Source: a phage
Length of the DNA stretch: 64,000 nt
Sequence record: NC_102531.1
Direction: 5' to 3' (one strand)
Both the position numbers and the translations under genes were made by a program. The notes beneath the pieces were generated by a model. The model was given only the letters and a program-made list of their open reading frames with translations, was not told the origin of the DNA and did no database searches. Shown in pieces: positions 15,877 to 45,189 of the stretch (position 1 is the first letter of the stretch; every line of letters begins with the position of its first letter).

Positions 15877-16350
15877 TTATTCCTGCTCTTCCGGAGTCTG
15901 ATCCAGGTTGTTCACCTGCTGAATCATACCCATCTGCTGTAACATCTCCAGAAGGCTTCCTAAACCGTCTTGTGTGAAAAAACAGCCGTAGTTAACCTCC
16001 AGAACCTTACCTGCCAGCTTAATCATCCCCAGCAGATGCCCTGCAAACACAACATCCGGGTTAAGCTTATCCACACCATCTACGGTAATATCTTCGAACA
16101 AGATTTTAAATAGCTCTTCAATAGAGTTATCATCAAGTTCTTGGAACAGGTAAGCCAGAGCTGTAGGAAGGACCTCTGCCATGTTCTGACCGCCTGAGAT
16201 AATAGATCCACCGATAGCACCTAGCGGGACAGCCACAATCTTACCGATTTTAGGCATGTTTTTCATTGCTTTCATCGGTCCCCAGTGGGTGATCACAAAG
16301 TTGTGCCCTGCTAAATCAATCTCTGTTGTAGGTCTAAAGTTTATAGCCAT
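15877..16350 (-). CDS. putative tail assembly chaperone
   Basis: 157 aa ORF between tube-size and tape measure genes. Confidence 0.3.
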   Translation of the reverse strand: MAINFRPTTEIDLAGHNFVITHWGPMKAMKNMPKIGKIVAVPLGAIGGSIISGGQNMAEVLPTALAYLFQELDDNSIEELFKILFEDITVDGVDKLNPDVVFAGHLLGMIKLAGKVLEVNYGCFFTQDGLGSLLEMLQQMGMIQQVNNLDQTPEEQE

Positions 16351-26130: not shown

Positions 26131-27252
26131 TTAGATAAAACGCTTGAACATAGAAGGTGATGAGATTGATGGAATCACACAAGGAAGTGCTACCTCCTCT
26201 TTCTCCAGGAAATTAATCGCAGAAGCTACACAGTCAGCCCAGTCGTCTTTTCTGTTAAATGTTGATCTTTCCCCGTTGAATTTTTCAAGTTCGGTCAGAA
26301 ATGCTTCCAGAGTATCAGGATGGAAACTGGATTTTACAATCCTTACCATTCCTTGTTGGGCAAGATTGGCAAAAGGTGAGAACCTTGTCAGTTTAGACTT
26401 GTTGGAAGGCATTGGGTCTTCTTCAACCCTAAACCCTTCGGCAAGCAAGGATCTGGAGGAGGTTAAGAACTCACTCTTACCTGCCTGACCGGGGTCCACA
26501 GAGAATACGATTATACAATCATCACCATCAAACTGCGCCTGTTTCCTGATGATCACATCTCGTTCACCAGCCTTTTTACAGAACTTACCTTCCAGACCTG
26601 TGGAATACCTCCCGTCATCCACGTTCTCAGGACAATAATCCCCGGACAGGTAATAAAAGCCGTCGCTATCTTTACTTACCTTAACACTGGCGGTAAAGTC
26701 AGGAAATTTATTACCGGAAGTTCTCTCGGTTCCTGCTTTATCCCATGCCCTGCAAGACACTGATCCAAGGGGTACTCTATCGGCATCACGAAGGAAAGAT
26801 CTTTGAAAATAGTTTGCACCCTCAGGCTTTGCAAACCAGTTACCATGGAGAAGCTGAGCTTTTTCAAGCTCGGGCAGACCTTCAAGGAAAGCAAGGTATT
26901 CTGGGTTGTCTCTCAAGCAGACAGGATTATCGAATATTGTTGCGCCTATAAACGAGAATGACAACGGTCTCGGCTTGATCTCTACACCCAGTCCGTTAAC
27001 AGTGGTGTATTTCTCTATCAACTCTTCTTTAGAGTCTCCCCAGATAAATTCACCGTCGCGTCGGATAAAATATCTTTTCTTACCGCATTTCTCCGGATCT
27101 GGATACCCCTCATCGTCCAACCACCACCTAACCAGTTTGGCAAGCATGTGTTCTGAATCGGGGTTACAGCTGATAACCATTCTTGATGGATACTTTGACT
27201 GAGATCGCAGACGAGACATCAGGTAGTCTATCTGCTCCCATTCGAATTGTGT
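26131..27252 (-). CDS. terL: terminase large subunit, exon 2 (nuclease domain)
   Basis: Reading frame open upstream of the annotated Met back to the predicted 3' splice site; joins in frame to exon 1 (…MVCFDEG|TQFEWEQIDYLMSRL…). Confidence 0.6.
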   Translation of the reverse strand, partial: TQFEWEQIDYLMSRLRSQSKYPSRMVISCNPDSEHMLAKLVRWWLDDEGYPDPEKCGKKRYFIRRDGEFIWGDSKEELIEKYTTVNGLGVEIKPRPLSFSFIGATIFDNPVCLRDNPEYLAFLEGLPELEKAQLLHGNWFAKPEGANYFQRSFLRDADRVPLGSVSCRAWDKAGTERTSGNKFPDFTASVKVSKDSDGFYYLSGDYCPENVDDGRYSTGLEGKFCKKAGERDVIIRKQAQFDGDDCIIVFSVDPGQAGKSEFLTSSRSLLAEGFRVEEDPMPSNKSKLTRFSPFANLAQQGMVRIVKSSFHPDTLEAFLTELEKFNGERSTFNRKDDWADCVASAINFLEKEEVALPCVIPSISSPSMFKRFI

Positions 27253-28134
27253 CGTTTATGTTCGGGCAAGGTCGCTAGTCTTGCCCCGCCATTTTCAGGC
27301 AGCTGCATGTCTCCATGCAGACCAGACTATATCTTATGAATGTGTAAATACTCTGCCGCTCTAAGAATAGTTTCCTCATCTTCTTGGAAGAAACCTAAAG
27401 CTCTGTTGCATTTATCACAAAGCAACCCTCTTACAGCACCAGTTTTATGGTCATGATCAACACAAAAGAAATCTCTGTACCCTTGCATCCTATACTCATT
27501 AAGAGATATTCTACAAATGGCACACTTATGATCTTGATCTGAGAGTAGACGATAGTATTCATCTTTTGTTATGTGAAATTTCTTCTCAATCTGATAAAAC
27601 TTTTCACACATCTTACACCTGTTCGTAACCAGATATACTTTACCATAGTCACGTTTTGTGTAAAAACTATCAGCGAGCATACTTTCATGACAAGATTTGC
27701 ATTCAAAAAGTTCACCTTTCTTCAGCAAGTCTTGAATAAACAATGCTGCGTCATCTCTCTTAACCATATTTTTATTTTTACGAGATCCACCCTTCCTGTA
27801 GTACATATAGCATTCCTTGCATGTACCTGAGTATCCATCCTTGCTCTTAGATGATAAAAAGAAATCATCAATAGGCAGAACTCTTTGGCAATCCATACAT
27901 TTTTAGTATTACACATTCACCCTCCCGTTTCGAATCGCTTGATTCTACGTCTTTCGACTAGTCGTTGAACGTTCATCCTCTCGGATGCTTCGCTGCGGAT
28001 TATCTAAATTAACACACTGTTACCCTACCTTCGATCTCTCTTCGAAGCCTCTATTATGTTACCATAACAGGTTGGTGGTGTCAATAATAAAGATTTCCCC
28101 GCAATTAGGGAGGTTTTACGAGAGCTACAAATTA
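27253..28134 (-). mobile_element. group I self-splicing intron carrying an HNH homing endonuclease gene, inserted in the terminase large subunit gene
   Basis: Exon 1 ends GGU followed by in-frame UAA; minus strand contains UAAUUGCGGGGAAA (P4-like), GUUCAACGACUAGUC (R/P7 5' strand) and AAGAUAUAGUC (S/P7 3' strand) with GACUA/UAGUC complementarity; internal ORF 27327..27896. Confidence 0.7.
27327..27896 (-). CDS. intron-encoded HNH / Endonuclease VII-like homing endonuclease
   Basis: 189 aa; Cys-rich N-terminus with CxxC pairs; C-terminal CVDHDHKTGAVRGLLCDKCNRALG matches the T4 EndoVII-type His-Me finger; stop codon lies inside the intron S element. Confidence 0.7.
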   Translation of the reverse strand: MDCQRVLPIDDFFLSSKSKDGYSGTCKECYMYYRKGGSRKNKNMVKRDDAALFIQDLLKKGELFECKSCHESMLADSFYTKRDYGKVYLVTNRCKMCEKFYQIEKKFHITKDEYYRLLSDQDHKCAICRISLNEYRMQGYRDFFCVDHDHKTGAVRGLLCDKCNRALGFFQEDEETILRAAEYLHIHKI

Positions 28135-28560
28135 ACCCTCATCGAAGCAAACCATGGTGTACTCAAGACCCTGATGGTTAAGCTTATCTTGCACATACTC
28201 CATATGGCAGTATTTTACAACAGCTCCCTTTTTGCTTCTATCCCACTTACCAGTGTTCGGATCAAACCGTGGAAAAATGAACTTATGATCCTTCTCTCTG
28301 AACTTTGGCTTAATGTTTTCAGGCAGATCACTATAAATAGCTACTGCTTTAGGCCATAGTCCACCCTCACCTTCCAACTGTGGGGTTGTTCTTCGGAACA
28401 TAACCACAGAGCTGTGTGGGTCATCAATAATTTTAAGTGGCATCAACTGCAAGAGGAACGACTTGCCAGACCCTGCGGCACCGCCGATTACCAAGATATC
28501 TGCATCGTTTTCGAGGATCATCTTCTGCTTTTCAGAACACGGTCCGTAAATCTTAGACAT
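28135..28560 (-). CDS. terL: terminase large subunit, exon 1 (ATPase domain)
   Basis: Walker A VIGGAAGSGKS, Walker B MVCFDE; ORF ends with stop right after the predicted 5' splice site. Confidence 0.8.
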
Positions 28561-29663: not shown

Positions 29664-29740
29664 TGGTCTCCACGGAGTGATTCGAACACTCGACCTCCTG
29701 ATCCCAAATCAGGCGCTCTACCAAGCTGAGCTACGCGGAG
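29664..29740 (-). tRNA. tRNA-Pro (anticodon UGG)
   Basis: Manual fold: 7 bp acceptor, D arm, anticodon stem CCUGA/UCAGG with loop UUUGGGA, T loop GTTCGAATC, encoded CCA. Confidence 0.75.
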
Positions 29741-29751
29741 TATTTACTATT

Positions 29752-29826
29752 TGGTGGCCCTGGGTGGAATTGAACCACCGTCTGGCGATTATGAGTCGCT
29801 TGCTTGAACCTTCCAGCTACAGGGCC
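29752..29826 (-). tRNA. tRNA-Met (anticodon CAU; initiator/elongator/Ile2 not distinguished)
   Basis: Manual fold: acceptor GGCCCUG/CAGGGCC, anticodon loop CUCAUAA, T loop GGTTCAATTCC, encoded CCA. Confidence 0.7.
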
Positions 29827-29827
29827 T

Positions 29828-29903
29828 TGGTGCTGATGGCAGGACTTGAACCTACAACCTATTGATTACAAATCAATTGCACTACCGATTGTGCTACATC
29901 AGC
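29828..29903 (-). tRNA. tRNA-Thr (anticodon UGU)
   Basis: Manual fold: acceptor GCUGAUG/CAUCAGC, D arm GCAC/GUGC, anticodon stem AUUGA/UCAAU with loop UUUGUAA, encoded CCA. Confidence 0.75.
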
Positions 29904-29908
29904 AAAAA

Positions 29909-30007
29909 GGTGCTAGGTGATGGAATCGAACCACCTATGTATTCAACGACTACCTCGTCTATTTTCAGGATTAAAAATCCTCGCCCTTGCCAAAGGGCTT
30001 ACCTAGC
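29909..30007 (-). tRNA. aberrant tRNA-like element (anticodon unresolved; possible UUU loop)
   Basis: Perfect 7 bp acceptor (GCUAGGU/ACCUAGC), D arm GCCC/GGGC and T arm GGUGG-UUCGAUU-CCAUC, but ~99 nt long, anticodon region is a palindrome GGAUUUUUAAUCC, ~30 nt extra arm, 3' end ACCU rather than CCA. Confidence 0.35.
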
Positions 30008-30105
30008 TCAGTATGTTGACCATGTTGCTAGTCGGCGATGACGACTGTAACATTTGATAATCCGGTTCTGCTTCCGGCTTTCGCTTAATTACAAGGTCAA
30101 CAATG

Positions 30106-30196
30106 TGGCGGAGAGTAATGGAATCGAACCATCATCGAGTCATACCCAACGGGACGGTTTTCAAGACCGCTTGAGCACCATTGCTCCCTACCCTCC
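30106..30196 (-). tRNA. tRNA-Ser (anticodon UGA)
   Basis: Manual fold: type II tRNA, acceptor GGAGGGU/ACUCUCC, anticodon stem GCGGU/ACCGU with loop CUUGAAA, long variable arm, encoded GCCA. Confidence 0.75.
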
Positions 30197-30310
30197 TTTA
30201 TAAATTATACTGATAATGACACTGATTTTCGAGCAGTTAGTGACTAGTATAAACGACGATAAATATCAATGCCATTATCTGTATTATTTATGCATCTAAA
30301 AATATAAATT

Positions 30311-30397
30311 TGGTGGGGAGTGGTGGAGTCGAACCACCCGAGTCGCAATGACAATAGATTTACAGTCTACACCGCTACCTCTACGGGATAACTCCCC
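30311..30397 (-). tRNA. tRNA-Tyr (anticodon GUA)
   Basis: Manual fold: type II tRNA, acceptor GGGGAGU/ACUCCCC, anticodon stem GUAGA/UCUAU with loop CUGUAAA, T arm GGUGG-UUCGACU-CCACC, encoded CCA. Confidence 0.75.
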
Positions 30398-30401
30398 AAT
30401 T

Positions 30402-30476
30402 TGGCACCCCGTACTGGACTCGAACCAGTGTCAACGGCTTAGAAGGCCGCTGCTTTATCCACTAAGCTAACAGGGC
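30402..30476 (-). tRNA. tRNA-Arg (anticodon UCU)
   Basis: Manual fold: acceptor GCCCUGU/ACGGGGU (two G-U pairs), D arm GCUU/AAGC, anticodon stem GCGGC/GCCGU with loop CUUCUAA, encoded CCA. Confidence 0.7.
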
Positions 30477-30572
30477 ACTGGGTGGCTTTCTTTTACACCT
30501 TAGCCGCCAGAAAAGGTGGGAGACCATGTTTACAATATTACACTGTTAAGCAAAGTTTGTCAAGAAAATATT

Positions 30573-33413: not shown

Positions 33414-33968
33414 TTACTCCCTGCTGTCAATATCAAAACTCATTGCAATACGGTATGCCTCTTCTAATGGTAAGAGTCTCCCCCACACATCCCAACCGAC
33501 ATCAAGCTGCCTGCCAAACAACTGTTGTGTGGTTCCGTGAGCATGACCGAACAGTTGGACTGATCCGTGAGGCTTTCTGTTCCACTTTGCAAACTGGTAA
33601 TGGCTCATACAGATCAAATTCTTGTTGTGGCGAAGCTCGTAATAATCTACAACCTCATGACCGAACTCTTTCATAATTCTGACAGTCGTCCTTGTGTCAT
33701 GGTTGCCACGAACAAGAATAATATGTCCGTTCAACATATTTAGAATATCTGGAAGTAAGTTGTTGATATTCTTATCATTAGTGCACGCAATATCTCCCAA
33801 GTGGAACACAGTGTCTGCAGGTGACACAACAGAGTTCCACTCGGCGATGATTCCTGCATTCATACTGTCAAGATTACGATTATACTGAGATCTGTGTTTT
33901 TGACATGAATCAAACTCCATGACCCGCTGGTGGAGAAAGTGTGTGTCGCTTGTTACAAAGTATTTCAT
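33414..33968 (-). CDS. calcineurin-like metallophosphoesterase (candidate RNA 3'-phosphatase, Pnkp-like)
   Basis: Signature motifs SDTH, GDIA, GNHD, GHAH in order; likely start at MKYFVTSDTHF (ORF track 33414..34073 extends into the kinase gene). Confidence 0.6.
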   Translation of the reverse strand: MKYFVTSDTHFLHQRVMEFDSCQKHRSQYNRNLDSMNAGIIAEWNSVVSPADTVFHLGDIACTNDKNINNLLPDILNMLNGHIILVRGNHDTRTTVRIMKEFGHEVVDYYELRHNKNLICMSHYQFAKWNRKPHGSVQLFGHAHGTTQQLFGRQLDVGWDVWGRLLPLEEAYRIAMSFDIDSRE

Positions 33969-33975
33969 ACATTCC

Positions 33976-34386
33976 TCATTTAAGTTTAATGCAGTTTTTA
34001 AGCTGGCGTTCCATACGATCCACAACCCTGTCTGGAACATCATGAATGCTTTTATTACCGTGGCGGTTTTCAACCACGATCACGGTATAACTATACCCAT
34101 TACTGATTGCCATGTCAATATATTCTTGCACATGTTTTTCTTTTGTAAACGTATTACTTACCACGATACGGTCGTATCCCATACGCATCATATCTTCTAC
34201 GTTATCTTTGCACCATTTTGCTGCAAGTGTTACTTTACTTGCATCCCAGTTGTAATTTCCGTCATCGTCGTACCAGAACATGTCGTTCTCAAAATGTGGA
34301 TACAGACCTTCTAAAGATAGCGCATTTGCCAGTGTTGATTTGCCAGACCCTGGTAGACCACGCACGATATATAGCATTTTAGACAT
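33976..34386 (-). CDS. P-loop polynucleotide kinase-like protein (candidate 5'-OH kinase)
   Basis: Walker A GLPGSGKST close to N-terminus, T4 Pnk kinase-domain-like; likely start MSKMLYIV preceded by GGAGG. Confidence 0.5.
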   Translation of the reverse strand: MSKMLYIVRGLPGSGKSTLANALSLEGLYPHFENDMFWYDDDGNYNWDASKVTLAAKWCKDNVEDMMRMGYDRIVVSNTFTKEKHVQEYIDMAISNGYSYTVIVVENRHGNKSIHDVPDRVVDRMERQLKNCIKLK

Positions 34387-34486
34387 AGTAATCCTCCGTT
34401 TTAATTTTAATGATAGTATACCTAACTGTTTTGTTAATTTCAAGTGTTGACACTAGGTTATTTGTGTGGCAGGATAGACTGACAAA

Positions 34487-35422
34487 ATGACAAATGAGGA
34501 ACGTATGATGAAGTATTTTAATGCAGACGACTTGGTTGACAAAGGTCTTGTAACCAGTAGATATTACCCAGATCTTGGGTTAAAGATCTATAAATATGCC
34601 AGAAAAGTATTTTACAACAATTTATGGCATTTGTCCCCTCGTTTACTAGAGTGCCGAGGCATTGTTGTCGGTAATGAAGGAAATGTTGTGGCATGGCCCT
34701 TCACAAAAGTGTTTAACTTGGGAGAAAACTCCACCAACCTGCCTGACAATAAGCTTGTGACGGCGGTAGAGAAAAAGAACGGATTCCTTGGTGTGGTATC
34801 ATCTCATAAAGGTGAACTATTGTTCTCAACAACCGGATCTATTGATTCTCCATATTGTAACCTCGCAAAGGAAACCATCCAGGAGCAATGTGGTAATTTA
34901 GATCTTATCAAGAAGGTTATGGGTAATGAAAACATGACATTCATGTTTGAAATTTGTCACCCTTCAGATCCGCATATTGTTCAGGAAGATCATGGCGCAT
35001 ATTTGATAGGTTGCAGATATAATGATTCTGGAATAATGCTACCAGAGGCAGCTTTAGATGGGATTGCCAAATACCTTGGTGCAAAACGTCCTCACACTGT
35101 GCGTGAAATTCCGTTCAGCTATGCAAAAGAATTAGCTGCAGAAACAAGAGGCGAAGGGTATATGATCCGTAAGCCTTACTACCCTTATGACCTGCAGCTG
35201 AAGATCAAGTCTCCATACTATCTGGCACGGAAGGCCGTAATGAGGTGTAAAGCTTGGAAGATTTGGGATGATGATATCTTTAAACGTGTTGACGAAGAGT
35301 TTTACGGCATGGTAAACTTCATTCGTAGCAATTACACAGAAGATGTGTGGAACTGTCTCCTGGAGCAGGAACGCCGCGAGATACTTGACTGCTATTTCCA
35401 CAACGAGGACTATATGCAATGA
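34487..35422 (+). CDS. RNA ligase, T4 Rnl1 (RnlA)-like
   Basis: Recognisable similarity to T4 Rnl1 N-terminal region (LECRGIVV, KVFNLGEN, adenylation motif EKKNGFLG, STTGSIDS). Confidence 0.6.
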   Translation: MTNEERMMKYFNADDLVDKGLVTSRYYPDLGLKIYKYARKVFYNNLWHLSPRLLECRGIVVGNEGNVVAWPFTKVFNLGENSTNLPDNKLVTAVEKKNGFLGVVSSHKGELLFSTTGSIDSPYCNLAKETIQEQCGNLDLIKKVMGNENMTFMFEICHPSDPHIVQEDHGAYLIGCRYNDSGIMLPEAALDGIAKYLGAKRPHTVREIPFSYAKELAAETRGEGYMIRKPYYPYDLQLKIKSPYYLARKAVMRCKAWKIWDDDIFKRVDEEFYGMVNFIRSNYTEDVWNCLLEQERREILDCYFHNEDYMQ

Positions 35423-35769
35423 AGAAGTTGATTGTGTGGCTGGATGACTTGAGAGATCCGTCAAATTATGGGCTCCCAGACGCTATTTGGCTAAAGAATT
35501 CCTCCGAGTTTATGGATTTTATTGACGATAATAGAAAGCTCTACAGACGCGTTTCTGAGTGGCATATGGACAACGACCTTGGAGAGGTATTCGAAGGGTA
35601 CGATTGCCTATCTATGTTGGAGGAAAAATTTGTATTTGGTAAGCCTCCTGTAGTTGACAACGTGAAGATTTTCGTGCATACTTCTAACCCATCAGCTGCT
35701 CGTAAATTCATGCTTGCAGCTGACTCGTTTAAAAAGTTCGGAATAGAGATTAAACAAAACATCTACTGA
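35419..35769 (+). CDS. hypothetical protein (partner of Sir2 gene)
   Basis: 116 aa ORF overlapping the Rnl stop and ending 9 nt before the Sir2 start. Confidence 0.35.
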   Translation: MKKLIVWLDDLRDPSNYGLPDAIWLKNSSEFMDFIDDNRKLYRRVSEWHMDNDLGEVFEGYDCLSMLEEKFVFGKPPVVDNVKIFVHTSNPSAARKFMLAADSFKKFGIEIKQNIY

Positions 35770-35777
35770 GGACACTT

Positions 35778-36539
35778 ATGCGACGACTGATCATTATCTC
35801 CGGTGCTGGTTTGAGCGCTGAATCTGGTATCCCCACTTTCCGGTCTGGTGGCACTGCAATGTGGGAGAATTTCAGCATCAATGAGGTGTGTAACATCCAC
35901 ACCTTCGCCAAGAACTACTATAAGGTGCATGACTTTTACAATGCACGACGTGTAGCTCTGGGCAGTGTTGATCCTAACCTTGCACATCTCCGGATCGCTG
36001 AGTGGTATTCCCGCTGGTCTGGTCGTGTGATCAACATTACCACCAATGTGGATGATTTGCTGGAGCGTGCTGGTGTAAAACATGAAGATATTTTACATGT
36101 CCACGGGTATTTGCCAGAAATAGTCTATGAGGACGATGAAGGAAGTAACGTTATTAAGGACATTGGATACTCTGAGGTAGATGCAGGAAAGTATACCTGG
36201 GTTAAGCCTAATGTAGTGTTCTTCGGAGAAGTAGCTCCGAAGTATACAGACATGTACGACCTGTTGACTTCCCTTACGAGTAATGATATGGTTATCCTTG
36301 TAGGGTGTTCCAACACAGTTATCAATTTTAACTGGGAGCTATTCCCTGCCTGCAATAAGGGAACCAAACTACTGATCGTTAACAAATACGACTCACAGCA
36401 TCTAGAGGAGAATGGCATTTCACGTAGTGATATTTACCAATATGAGGATCGCGGCATCCCAGTTTGGTTTAACGGGGCGGTTGATGCTTTCTCTGATAAA
36501 ACATTCATTGAGATCGTAGAAAACTTTATGGAACTTTAA
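35778..36539 (+). CDS. Sir2 (sirtuin) family NAD-dependent deacylase/NADase-like protein
   Basis: N-terminal GAGLSAESGIPTFRS (NAD-binding), TNVDDLL and HVHG motifs; no CxxC zinc module seen. Confidence 0.65.
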   Translation: MRRLIIISGAGLSAESGIPTFRSGGTAMWENFSINEVCNIHTFAKNYYKVHDFYNARRVALGSVDPNLAHLRIAEWYSRWSGRVINITTNVDDLLERAGVKHEDILHVHGYLPEIVYEDDEGSNVIKDIGYSEVDAGKYTWVKPNVVFFGEVAPKYTDMYDLLTSLTSNDMVILVGCSNTVINFNWELFPACNKGTKLLIVNKYDSQHLEENGISRSDIYQYEDRGIPVWFNGAVDAFSDKTFIEIVENFMEL

Positions 36540-44199: not shown

Positions 44200-45189
44200 T
44201 TGACGATGATGACAAAGTTAACTCTTGAGCAAATTTTAACACTAAAGCAACAGGGATACACTAATAGACAAATTGCTCGTGAATTTTTAGGCCGTGAGTC
44301 ACGTGAGAGCTGGATCCGACTACAGCTTAAACGTGCACAAGAGAATATGTCAGAGATTGTAGGAGAAGCAACGGAGCGCTTCCTTGAAGAGCACAAAGGT
44401 GCTAAAGTTTGGGTGTATGATACAGAAACATCCCCAACAAACGGCTGGTTCTTTGGGCACTATAAGACCAACATTCAAACCTGTGGTATTGAAGTTATGC
44501 CCTATATGCTAACTTTCGCAGGTAAGTGGTTAGACAGCCCTAGTGTGGTTGACTGCGCTCTTCCCGATTACAAAATGTGGGATGAGGATATTCACAATGA
44601 TCTCGAATTGATTCAGGATTTGTGGTATTATCTGGATAAATGTGATGTCGCAGTAGCCCACAATTCAGGTTTTGACTGCGGGTGGGCCAACCAACGATTT
44701 GCATTTCACGGGTTGCCTCCAACAAGCCCCTACAAAGAGGTTGACACCCTTAAAATGATCAAGAAGGCATTCCGTTTGAATGCAAACACTTTGGAGTATG
44801 CATGCAAATACTTCCAACTTGCCCGACAGAAACTGATTGACCACACATTTGAAATGTGGATCAAGTGTGTTCACGGTGACCTTGAGGCGTTTAAACAGAT
44901 GCGGGAGTACAATGTTGGTGATATCTTGTCTCTGGAAGGCCTGTATTTGCTGGCTCGCCCGTTTACTAAGCAGCACCCAAATATGTCATTGTACTATCAA
45001 GACGAGGAGCCAAAAGTTCGTTGTCCACGCTGTGGTGGAGAACACCTTCACGAGGAAGAAGCTTTGGCGTATACTCAACTGAGCGCATTTAAAACATACC
45101 GCTGCGAAGGTTGTGGATCTGTTGTTCGTGATCGTAACAACATCCGTACCAGAGAAGAAATGAAAAACACCCTGATTCAGATAATCTAA
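44200..45189 (+). CDS. DEDDh 3'-5' exonuclease with C-terminal zinc ribbon
   Basis: VYDTETS (Exo I), AHNSGFD (Exo III, DEDDh type), C-terminal CPRCGG...CEGCG. Confidence 0.5.
   Translation: MTMMTKLTLEQILTLKQQGYTNRQIAREFLGRESRESWIRLQLKRAQENMSEIVGEATERFLEEHKGAKVWVYDTETSPTNGWFFGHYKTNIQTCGIEVMPYMLTFAGKWLDSPSVVDCALPDYKMWDEDIHNDLELIQDLWYYLDKCDVAVAHNSGFDCGWANQRFAFHGLPPTSPYKEVDTLKMIKKAFRLNANTLEYACKYFQLARQKLIDHTFEMWIKCVHGDLEAFKQMREYNVGDILSLEGLYLLARPFTKQHPNMSLYYQDEEPKVRCPRCGGEHLHEEEALAYTQLSAFKTYRCEGCGSVVRDRNNIRTREEMKNTLIQII

Follow-up and report, generated by a model that had tools for sequence, protein, structure and literature searches.

A family of non-canonical tRNA-like RNAs in the tRNA clusters of Vequintavirinae phages and its possible roles

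Known tRNA-like RNAs and gene X

Phage-encoded tRNAs can counter host defences that cleave tRNA (PMC10264068, PMC11464382, PMC11555353): tRNA-Lys of T5 is set against AriB of the PARIS system (PMC11464382) and tRNA-Tyr of T5 against retron Eco7 (PMC11555353), and a hypothesis paper treats the same theme (PMC10264068). Here we describe a tRNA-like gene of 99 nucleotides (nt), referred to as X, on the minus strand of a 64,000-nt stretch of phage DNA (record NC_102531.1; the whole stretch is called the window below), where it reads 5' to 3' from 30007 to 29909. The source is an rV5-like coliphage of the genus Vequintavirus; over the 1 kb around X it matches Escherichia phage V5/rV5 and many relatives at 99.7% identity. 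On the sequence evidence, X is a genuine, conserved and structurally constrained tRNA-shaped RNA gene. Among phage tRNA-like RNAs it is non-canonical and makes up a well-defined family of its own, and it keeps the whole tRNA body under selection across at least five genera, yet has given up the normal loop, a fixed discriminator base and, in one clade, an encoded CCA.

X resembles the phage tRNAs that escape nucleases in that it lies in the tRNA cluster of a lytic phage, has a tRNA body with changes in the anticodon stem-loop, and shares its genome with RNA-repair enzymes. The documented counter-defence phage tRNAs, however, are all otherwise canonical decoders with point substitutions, whereas X has a 5-6-nt loop, usually no U33, a 31-43-nt extra region with invariant linkers, a variable discriminator and no conserved anticodon among its orthologues. 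A second comparison is offered by the stable RNAs C and D of T4 ("species 1 and 2"), small RNAs that are encoded in the T4 tRNA cluster, co-transcribed and co-processed with the tRNAs and dispensable in the laboratory; X is a full cloverleaf. In Bacillus cereus, tRNA-Other is a tRNA-shaped pseudo-tRNA that is under selection and is not a standard decoder. The Y-RNA-like tRNA mimics YrlA (RF02553) are also selected tRNA shapes rather than standard decoders, and lie beside tRNAs in some phages (PMC4201824). In YrlA, however, the ends of the molecule belong to a stem that binds Ro; those of X form a normal acceptor stem. The YrlA model gave no match on X, its sole weak match (25 bits) falling on tRNA-Pro/Met, and the annotation of the complete AlexBoehm genome, a close relative, lists no Ro/Rsr gene.

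Like tRNA-Sec, the class II tRNAs (Ser, Leu, Tyr) and the allo-tRNAs, X has a long extra arm and a possible D stem of 6 base pairs (bp) closed by a 4-nt loop. The likeness to tRNA-Sec extends to UCA in the copies from Erwinia phages and to the Rfam tRNA-Sec model (RF01852), on which most members score best, but X has 7/5 and not 8/5 acceptor/T geometry and no 7-nt anticodon loop, and G73 occurs in no member. We rejected this assignment, since the family scores of 27-39 bits all fall short of the gathering score, which is 47. Scores as high are reached on the same model by ordinary phage tRNA-Ser and tRNA-Tyr, and the window copy itself scores best as tRNA and not as tRNA-Sec. Unlike the class II tRNAs, X has long single-stranded linkers on both sides of its extra hairpin. 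Overall, X is most like the counter-defence phage tRNAs and the bacterial pseudo-tRNAs and tRNA mimics, yet it departs from each class tested in the features that define that class. The papers on tRNA-targeting defences that we searched make no mention of this Vequintavirinae tRNA-like gene.

Fold, conservation and departures from a tRNA

Read 5' to 3', X runs GCUAGGU AA GCCC UUUGGCAA GGGC G AGGAU UUUUA AUCCU in its 5' half and continues after AUCCU with GAAAAUAG ACGAGGUAGUCGU UGAAUACAUA GGUGG UUCGAUU CCAUC ACCUAGC A CC(U). The first-pass annotation, made from the letters alone, had placed a tRNA-like element at 29909-30007, and this interval is correct, the strand being minus. The whole gene is delimited at 29909..30007 by ARAGORN, with a Rfam tRNA match at 29911-30007 and a match to our family model R1, and neither ARAGORN nor Rfam gave a conventional tRNA with different ends. 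The minimum-free-energy (MFE) fold is a cloverleaf (-34.2 kcal/mol, z = -3.66), and none of 200 shuffled sequences was as stable; together with the ARAGORN and Rfam calls and the conserved, covarying structure, this places the element above chance.

The 5' strand of the acceptor stem, GCUAGGU (30001..30007), pairs with 29912-29918 in a perfect 7 bp, and five of these seven pairs show compensatory change in the family. A8 and A9 precede the D arm GCCC-UUUGGCAA-GGGC (29983..30000 together), which can also be drawn as GCCCUU-UGGC-AAGGGC with a 6-bp stem and the 4-nt loop UGGC, as the MFE fold and RNAalifold both predict; the two added U-A pairs never vary, so covariation is unable to confirm them. 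G26 and the anticodon-like hairpin AGGAU-UUUUA-AUCCU occupy 29967..29982, and pairs 27:43, 30:40 and 31:39 covary. The extra region of 31 nt consists of a single-stranded 5' linker GAAAAUAG (29959..29966), the extra, or variable-arm, hairpin GACGA-GGUAG-UCGUU (29945..29959) and a single-stranded 3' linker GAAUACAUA (29936..29944). In the 5' linker, G..AAA is invariant in the family while the adjoining helices change, and in the 3' linker AUACAUA, right before the T stem, is invariant in 29 of 29 members. The T arm is GGUGG-UUCGAUU-CCAUC (29919..29935), and its C56 becomes A exactly where G19 of the D loop becomes U. The acceptor 3' strand ACCUAGC, the discriminator A and CC close the gene (29909..29918). 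Since the base after CC is U, the CCA is not encoded, whereas it is encoded in all six other tRNAs of the cluster. Mature X is probably 30007..29911 (discriminator A), with the CCA finished post-transcriptionally.

Every feature read at first pass is thereby borne out, namely a perfect 7-bp acceptor stem, D and T arms, a long extra arm with a hairpin and ACCU in place of CCA at the 3' end. The palindrome GGAUUUUUAAUCC noted there is present as well, more precisely as AGGAUU-UUU-AAUCCU. The features of a canonical tRNA body are all found in X (7-bp acceptor stem, G18 and G19 in the D arm, UUCRA in the T arm, and G19:C56). Position 8 is A and position 14 is U, so that the near-universal U8/A14 is swapped; its reverse-Hoogsteen pair is absent from X, and A8 and U14 are invariant in the family.

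BLAST, two motif scans and the covariance model R1 yielded 29 distinct orthologues of X across the Vequintavirinae, from phages of Escherichia, Salmonella, Klebsiella, Cronobacter and Erwinia and from metagenomes; a D-arm motif scan of viral contigs returned mainly chance matches and one new member. They belong to Vequintavirus, Avunavirus (Av-05), the genus-unassigned phage TH18, Seunavirus (NINP13076, GE_vB_MG, EspYZU14, SPLA5a, LNA4 and 4MG), Mydovirus (KB57 and DP) and Henunavirus (Erwinia phages pEp_SNUABM_01 and Hena1), or lie on metagenomic contigs, the longest of 130-150 kb. Under R1, X scores 106 bits and is the sole match in the 64-kb window at E<=1e-12. The family signature comprises A8, a D loop UUUG(G/U)CAA, G26 and G44 around a 14-16-nt hairpin, an extra region made of a GAAAA linker, the extra hairpin and an AUACAUA linker, and a T loop UU(C/A)GAUU; the window copy carries every one of these features. 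Positions A8, U14-U16 and G18 are invariant.

In a 15-sequence MAFFT alignment, 99.4% of stem cells are paired and double changes occur at 10 of 22 pairs; with the partners slid by 1-3 columns as a control, pairing falls to 32-45%. Among all 29 distinct sequences 99.2% of stem cells are paired, and 13 of the 22 pairs show compensatory double changes. RNAalifold independently yields the same cloverleaf. The D stem occurs as GCCC/GGGC, GACC/GGUC and GCGG/CCGC, and the elbow pair 19:56 is G:C in 20 members and U:A in nine, with no mismatch. Because D-loop position 19 and T-loop position 56, the tertiary pair of the tRNA elbow, switch together, it is the L-shaped fold itself that is kept. Between genera, X is 0.67-0.93 identical and the adjoining tRNA-Thr 0.60-1.0. 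The first-pass suggestion that this could be a degenerate pseudo-tRNA is not supported, as the four stems and G19:C56 are held by compensatory changes and conservation equals that of tRNA-Thr.

The linkers GAAAA and AUACAUA beside the extra hairpin are single-stranded and invariant, which suggests that they make a tertiary contact or serve as a recognition site. The hairpin itself is free to evolve, with 5 bp in rV5 and 6-7 bp in Seunavirus. Between rV5 and the pair TH18 and Av-05, an A-U pair becomes G-C (ACGG..CCGU), and the copies from Erwinia and Klebsiella phages and several metagenomic copies have a 3-4-bp stem and a conserved 14-nt loop GAACUAACAGUAC.

In a canonical tRNA, positions 26 and 44 enclose 17 nt (5 bp, a 7-nt loop, 5 bp). 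In X the arm between the invariant G26 and G44 measures 14-16 nt in 29 of 29 members and never 17. Arms of 15 nt are found in the rV5, TH18, Av-05 and Erwinia types and arms of 16 nt in the Seunavirus and Mydovirus types, while a single metagenomic copy has 14 nt; the canonical 5-bp stem with a 7-nt loop carrying U33 and purine 37 is not found. Under a 5-bp stem the loops have 5 nt (UUUUA, UUAUA, AUCAA) or 6 nt (CAUCCA, CUUCCA, CCUCCA, CAGCCA, CCUCAA). The closing pair 31:39 is C-G in 14 members, U-A in 10 and mismatched in five, and C31-G39 is retained in every 16-nt arm while the inner loop changes, which argues that the pair forms and that the loop is truly of 6 nt. In the window copy the hairpin is a 15-nt palindrome with two possible drawings, a 5-bp stem closing a 5-nt loop and a 4-bp stem closing the loop UUUUUAA; only the 15-nt arms permit the second, with 4 bp and 7 nt. 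Redrawn in this way the Erwinia type gives CAUCAAA, with A in place of U33, and most members are without U33. The anticodon loop of the adjacent tRNA-Thr is YUUGUAA, invariant in all genera, whereas the loop of X differs by clade. The discriminator of X is A, C or U and varies even between close relatives (C in TH18 and U in Av-05; U in EspYZU14 and C in SPLA5a). Within the clade of rV5, TH18 and Av-05 the CCA is unencoded, the 3' ends being ACCU, ACAU, CACA and UACA. The non-canonical anticodon arm and unusually long extra arm proposed at first pass are thus borne out, and standard tools assign X no conventional identity.

ARAGORN reports X as a 99-nt "tRNA-???" with the four-base anticodon "atcc". 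On the Rfam tRNA model (RF00005), whose gathering score is 29, X reaches 35.5 bits at E=9.5e-4 (whole window, all families), and the alignment requires a 26-nt insertion and one deleted stem position. The rV5 record NC_011041 lists six tRNAs and leaves the stretch of X blank, and the rV5 paper likewise reports six tRNAs, none of them at X (PMC3606486). BASEL phage records label X as tRNA-Lys with codon AAA, a label that arises because the rV5 arm can be redrawn with the loop UUUUUAA; further GenBank labels are tRNA-Stop(tta), tRNA-OTHER (Asp|Gly) and tRNA-???(atcc), and the Erwinia phage orthologue is called a suppressor, "sup(tca)". X has thus been picked up by software. Recognition of the family accounts for these contradictory pipeline labels (Lys, Stop, Asp|Gly, OTHER, none) and supplies a covariance model for consistent annotation.

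X lacks the conserved anticodon in a 7-nt loop that marks tRNA-Lys(UUU), for UUU stands at 34-36 only if U31-A39 is opened and orthologue loops read, among others, UUAUA, AUCAA and CAUCCA. Nor does it agree with tRNA-Lys in A73 and a class I variable loop, as A73 in rV5 is C or U in close relatives and the variable region is 31 nt long. The tRNA-Stop(tta) label was rejected, as it would need U-C and A-C mismatches in the stem. A suppressor tRNA does not fit the Erwinia copies either, where UCA is accompanied by A33 and by a stem of 4 bp. Transfer-messenger RNA (tmRNA) was rejected on a 3:70 pair that is U:A and not G3:U70, an extra region without a conserved frame and the lack of any tmRNA call by ARAGORN; the 5' linker AAAAUAG of X recalls the sequence upstream of the tmRNA resume codon. 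The alternative fold of ARAGORN, in which a stem AUUUU/AAAAU closes an 8-nt loop UAAUCCUG with the four-base anticodon AUCC, was discarded because that stem is missing in the Seunavirus, Mydovirus and Erwinia orthologues. An intron-containing tRNA was likewise rejected, the insertion of ~26-36 nt being much too small for a group I intron.

Nothing matching X was found among 5,426 complete genomes of E. coli, among 185,579 prokaryotic species represented by one genome apiece, or in lambda or P7, and we rejected a host or prophage origin on these grounds. The phage tRNA-Ser(UGA) shares with X both A8 and a lengthened D stem that leaves a 4-nt loop, and X may therefore have a class II phage tRNA as its ancestor. 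In its Seunavirus and Mydovirus type, X has U73, G1:C72, C2:G71, C35 and C36, which match the identity elements for glycine (GlyRS). In phages V18 and O157 typing phage 4 (species JES2013), deletions remove tRNA-Ser, the lambda-like spacer that follows it and most of X, and join the 5' part of tRNA-Tyr to the 3' part of X; the resulting tRNA-Tyr/X chimeras, with mismatched acceptor stems, lie at L142:655-745 (phage V18) and L143:640-728 (O157 typing phage 4). With X deleted in two natural lineages, it is dispensable and accessory.

Candidate functions of X

The reading we favour, with belief and doubt in balance, is that X belongs to a family of functional, processed, L-shaped and non-decoding tRNA mimics kept throughout the Vequintavirinae, possibly as a decoy in conflicts over tRNA. 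By analogy with tRNA biogenesis in E. coli, X would be co-transcribed with the neighbouring tRNAs, its 5' end would be cut by RNase P and its 3' end trimmed by 3' exonucleases or RNase BN, and the host CCA-adding enzyme would complete ACC to ACCA, as for the CCA-less tRNAs of T4. From its anatomy, the RNA should fold into an L and yet be unable to present an anticodon on the ribosome in the normal way. More speculatively, it might then occupy a tRNA-recognising protein as a mimic. In the version that we prefer, also speculative, X would act as a decoy or competitive inhibitor against anticodon nucleases and related tRNA-targeting defences, and the recognition surface would be the clade-specific hairpin loop together with the invariant A-rich linkers. 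A more specific proposal, which we regard as doubtful, is that X is an RNA anti-defence factor that traps or blocks PrrC, RloC, PARIS AriB or retron effectors alongside heal-and-seal enzymes, with the neighbouring non-canonical tRNA-like genes sharing the strategy.

If the mimic or decoy reading is true, X would be an RNA-level anti-defence tool of new design in therapeutic and model coliphages (rV5, the Vequintavirinae of the BASEL collection, PVP-SE1-like phages). It bears on tRNA-centred phage defence and counter-defence, a currently active question, and is cheap to test in model phages. The family is also a natural case in which to test how much of a tRNA must be kept for it to be processed and to be recognised by proteins.

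Several points weigh against the mimic reading. The decoy step is speculative, drawn as it is from context and analogy. The RNA-repair module of this phage is not adjacent to X, and such modules are common in large phages. A decoy for enzymes acting at the acceptor end would be expected to keep the CCA and the discriminator, and X does not. The covariation counts (13 of 22 pairs) include shared ancestry, so that independent events are fewer than cells, and full-text literature searches found no paper describing X. Finally, the arm of the rV5 clade can be drawn as 4 bp and UUUUUAA with U33 and A37, BASEL records carry the label tRNA-Lys, and decoding of Lys codons by X in this clade is possible.

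The last of these points leads to the main rival, which we consider unlikely, namely that X is an unusual but active tRNA whose altered arm resists anticodon nucleases. It would stand for Lys (UUU) in the rV5-like phages, for Ile (UAU) in TH18 and Av-05 and for Gly (UCC/GCC) in Seunavirus and Mydovirus, and in the Erwinia phages it would read UGA (UCA). There is precedent in the phage tRNAs with anticodon-loop changes that evade nucleases (PMC10264068, PMC11464382). Drawn with the 7-nt loop, the rV5 arm has UUU between U33 and A37 and has UUUUAAUC in common with the anticodon arm of E. coli tRNA-Lys, and the BASEL label specifies codon AAA. The 6-nt loops can be read as two bases, a triplet and A (C-A-UCC-A, C-A-GCC-A) with Gly-type elements kept, and a neighbouring Ile(GAU)-like gene holds GAU in loops of 6, 7 or 8 nt. 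On the other hand, 5 bp with a 7-nt loop occurs in no family member, the C31-G39 pair strictly kept in every 16-nt arm fixes a 6-nt loop, and U33 is missing in most members. The implied amino acid would change between close relatives with the same body, and the discriminator is A, C or U even within clades. These phages use the standard code, under which an opal suppressor would do harm, and E. coli already carries about six tRNA-Lys genes.

The same evidence divides the first-pass idea of a modified, Lys-like molecule connected with PrrC. The shared UUUUAAUC and the presence of an Rnl1-type ligase, a kinase and a phosphoesterase 3.4-5.4 kb away speak for it. The UUU, however, is not conserved, the loops being UUAUA in close relatives and AUCAA, CAUCCA, CAGCCA and the like in other genera, and Lys mimicry therefore cannot be the general function of the family.

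Less probable again is that X works in cis as a processing module that punctuates the polycistronic tRNA transcript by drawing RNase P, RNase E and 3' exonucleases to it, and has no role after its release. X always lies 2-7 nt from a neighbouring tRNA, and the parts recognised by RNase P (acceptor stem, T arm and elbow) are the best conserved while the anticodon end is free to vary, as this explanation would have it. The neighbouring tRNAs, however, are themselves substrates of RNase P and need no helper. In addition, RNase P has no need of the anticodon-like stem, the D stem or the two linkers (GAAAA and AUACAUA), yet all of these are conserved or covary, and the loop is conserved within each clade.

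We find it quite improbable that X is charged, with Gly or Ser as candidates, and used off the ribosome as an aminoacyl-transferase donor or regulator, in the manner of the staphylococcal non-proteinogenic tRNA-Gly or of tRNA-Other. Most members do have U73, G1:C72, C2:G71, C35 and C36 and end in UCCA like tRNA-Gly genes, but in the rV5 clade, the window copy included, U73, the loop's CC and the encoded CCA are gone, and the 3:70 pair is not G:C. Toward Ser, X recalls the Ser/Sec class in its long extra arm and in the 6-bp D stem and 4-nt D loop that it may form, and A8 and the extended D stem are common to X and the phage tRNA-Ser(UGA), whereas the G73 and G2:C71 expected by SerRS are absent; among the genes annotated in the genome no candidate transferase was identified. 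That X is a non-functional relic, a decaying tRNA pseudogene, would suit the aberrant anticodon arm, the unencoded CCA of the rV5 clade, the inconsistent labels and the non-lethal loss in V18 and O157 typing phage 4, but is practically excluded by compensatory change at 13 of 22 pairs including the tertiary pair, by 99% of cells paired over at least five genera, by conservation equal to that of a genuine tRNA across genera and by the invariance of the single-stranded linkers.

Genomic neighbourhood and adjacent RNAs

X is the fourth of seven co-oriented genes in a cluster found with ARAGORN and Rfam, Arg(UCU)-Tyr(GUA)-Ser(UGA)-X-Thr(UGU)-Met(CAU)-Pro(UGG) (29664..30476, minus strand). The tRNA-Thr starts 5 nt after the end of X, and outside rV5-like phages X usually comes 2 nt after a tRNA (CCA-AU-G). 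A promoter scan found a sigma-70-type promoter, TTGACA-17-TAATAT, upstream of tRNA-Arg (30535..30563, minus strand), at the same site as P(tRNA) in the rV5 record NC_011041, and a promoter-like site, TCGAAA-17-TATAAT, upstream of tRNA-Ser and X (30204..30232, minus strand), which is a consensus match only.

The RNA-repair module (33414..35769) lies 3.4-5.8 kb upstream of X. It comprises a metallophosphoesterase (33414-34073, minus strand; Pfam PF12850/PF00149), a P-loop kinase (33976-34443, minus strand; PF13671), an RNA ligase of the T4 Rnl1 family (34487-35422, plus strand; PF09511, 56 bits) and a protein with a cREC_REC cyclic-phosphate-processing domain (35419-35769, plus strand; PF20274). 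A SIR2-family protein is encoded next after the cREC gene, and the RNA-repair/NAD-related module as a whole spans 33414-36539, at a switch in the direction of transcription; measured from X it lies 3.4-6.5 kb upstream, and its distance from the tRNA cluster is 2.9-6.1 kb. BASEL phage AlexBoehm has the labels "RNA ligase", "polynucleotide kinase" and "phosphoresterase" here. An enzyme set of this kind in T4 repairs tRNA cut by anticodon nucleases (PMC10264068, PMC7824862), and the ligase, kinase, phosphoesterase and cREC set suggests that this phage is equipped for conflict over tRNA.

The tRNA-Ser(UGA) upstream of X (30106-30196, minus strand) is atypical, with A8 and an extended D stem closed by the 4-nt loop AUGG. 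It is not reported by the Rfam tRNA model and gives a sub-threshold tRNA-Sec match of 41.6 bits; the rV5 authors detected it only with ARAGORN (PMC3606486). P7 has a near-identical copy, unannotated there.

Between tRNA-Ser and X lies a spacer of about 90 nt (30008-30100, minus strand) that is 83-90% identical to unannotated non-coding DNA elsewhere and has no Rfam match. The matches fall in three places: lambda 44866-44952 (between orf-64 and S), a site in P7 downstream of the tRNA-Ser(UGA) that only ARAGORN finds, and the lambdoid prophages or P1-like plasmids of 426 among the 5,426 E. coli genomes. The element has two conserved hairpins in its interior. The outer helix reads UGUUGACC/GGUCAACA in rV5, GUUGUGCUG/CAGCACAAC in lambda and AAGAGUAUUUGGCU/AGCCAAGUGCUCUU in P7, and was misaligned in a three-sequence MAFFT alignment; that it differs and yet stays complementary in each phage suggests an undescribed structured RNA.

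Directly upstream of X, phages of Seunavirus and Mydovirus carry another tRNA-like gene of non-canonical form, an Ile(GAU)-like tRNA (L010:324-400, L018:325-400, L016:311-385, L017:251-325, L006:1419-1494 and L009:325-400). Its loops have 6 nt (ACGAUA), 7 nt without U33 (ACGAUUC, AAGAUUC) or 8 nt (ACAGAUCC), and GAU is conserved. Downstream of X in TH18, NINP13076, 4MG and LNA4 there is a conserved stretch of about 175 nt that is tRNA-like with an insertion of about 100 nt in the D loop (GUGCAUUAGCUCAG ... GUAGAGCGCC ...; L005:1612-1788 and L006:1618-1792). It has a 6-bp anticodon-like stem with a 5-nt loop, its fold z-scores are weak (-0.3 and -1.4), and it has no homologue in the window.

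The large terminase gene is in three pieces in the window (~26131-28560, minus strand) and uninterrupted in relatives such as AlexBoehm, and an HNH homing endonuclease among the interruptions in the rV5 record suggests group I introns. We considered X as a frameshift suppressor for this gene and rejected it, since the pieces are divided by probable introns with an HNH endonuclease. The tail assembly chaperone gene (15877-16350) has a candidate -1 frameshift site, T_TTT_TTC at 15976-15982 on the minus strand, after which the -1 frame stays open into a small open reading frame downstream. A helper role for X in this frameshift was also rejected, as the slippery T_TTT_TTC at 15982 consists of Phe codons unrelated to the loop of X. 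Over the X region, rV5-like coliphages share about 99.5% identity with several records that bear the name "Campylobacter phage" (MG0656xx); these are probably mislabelled or contaminant genomes.

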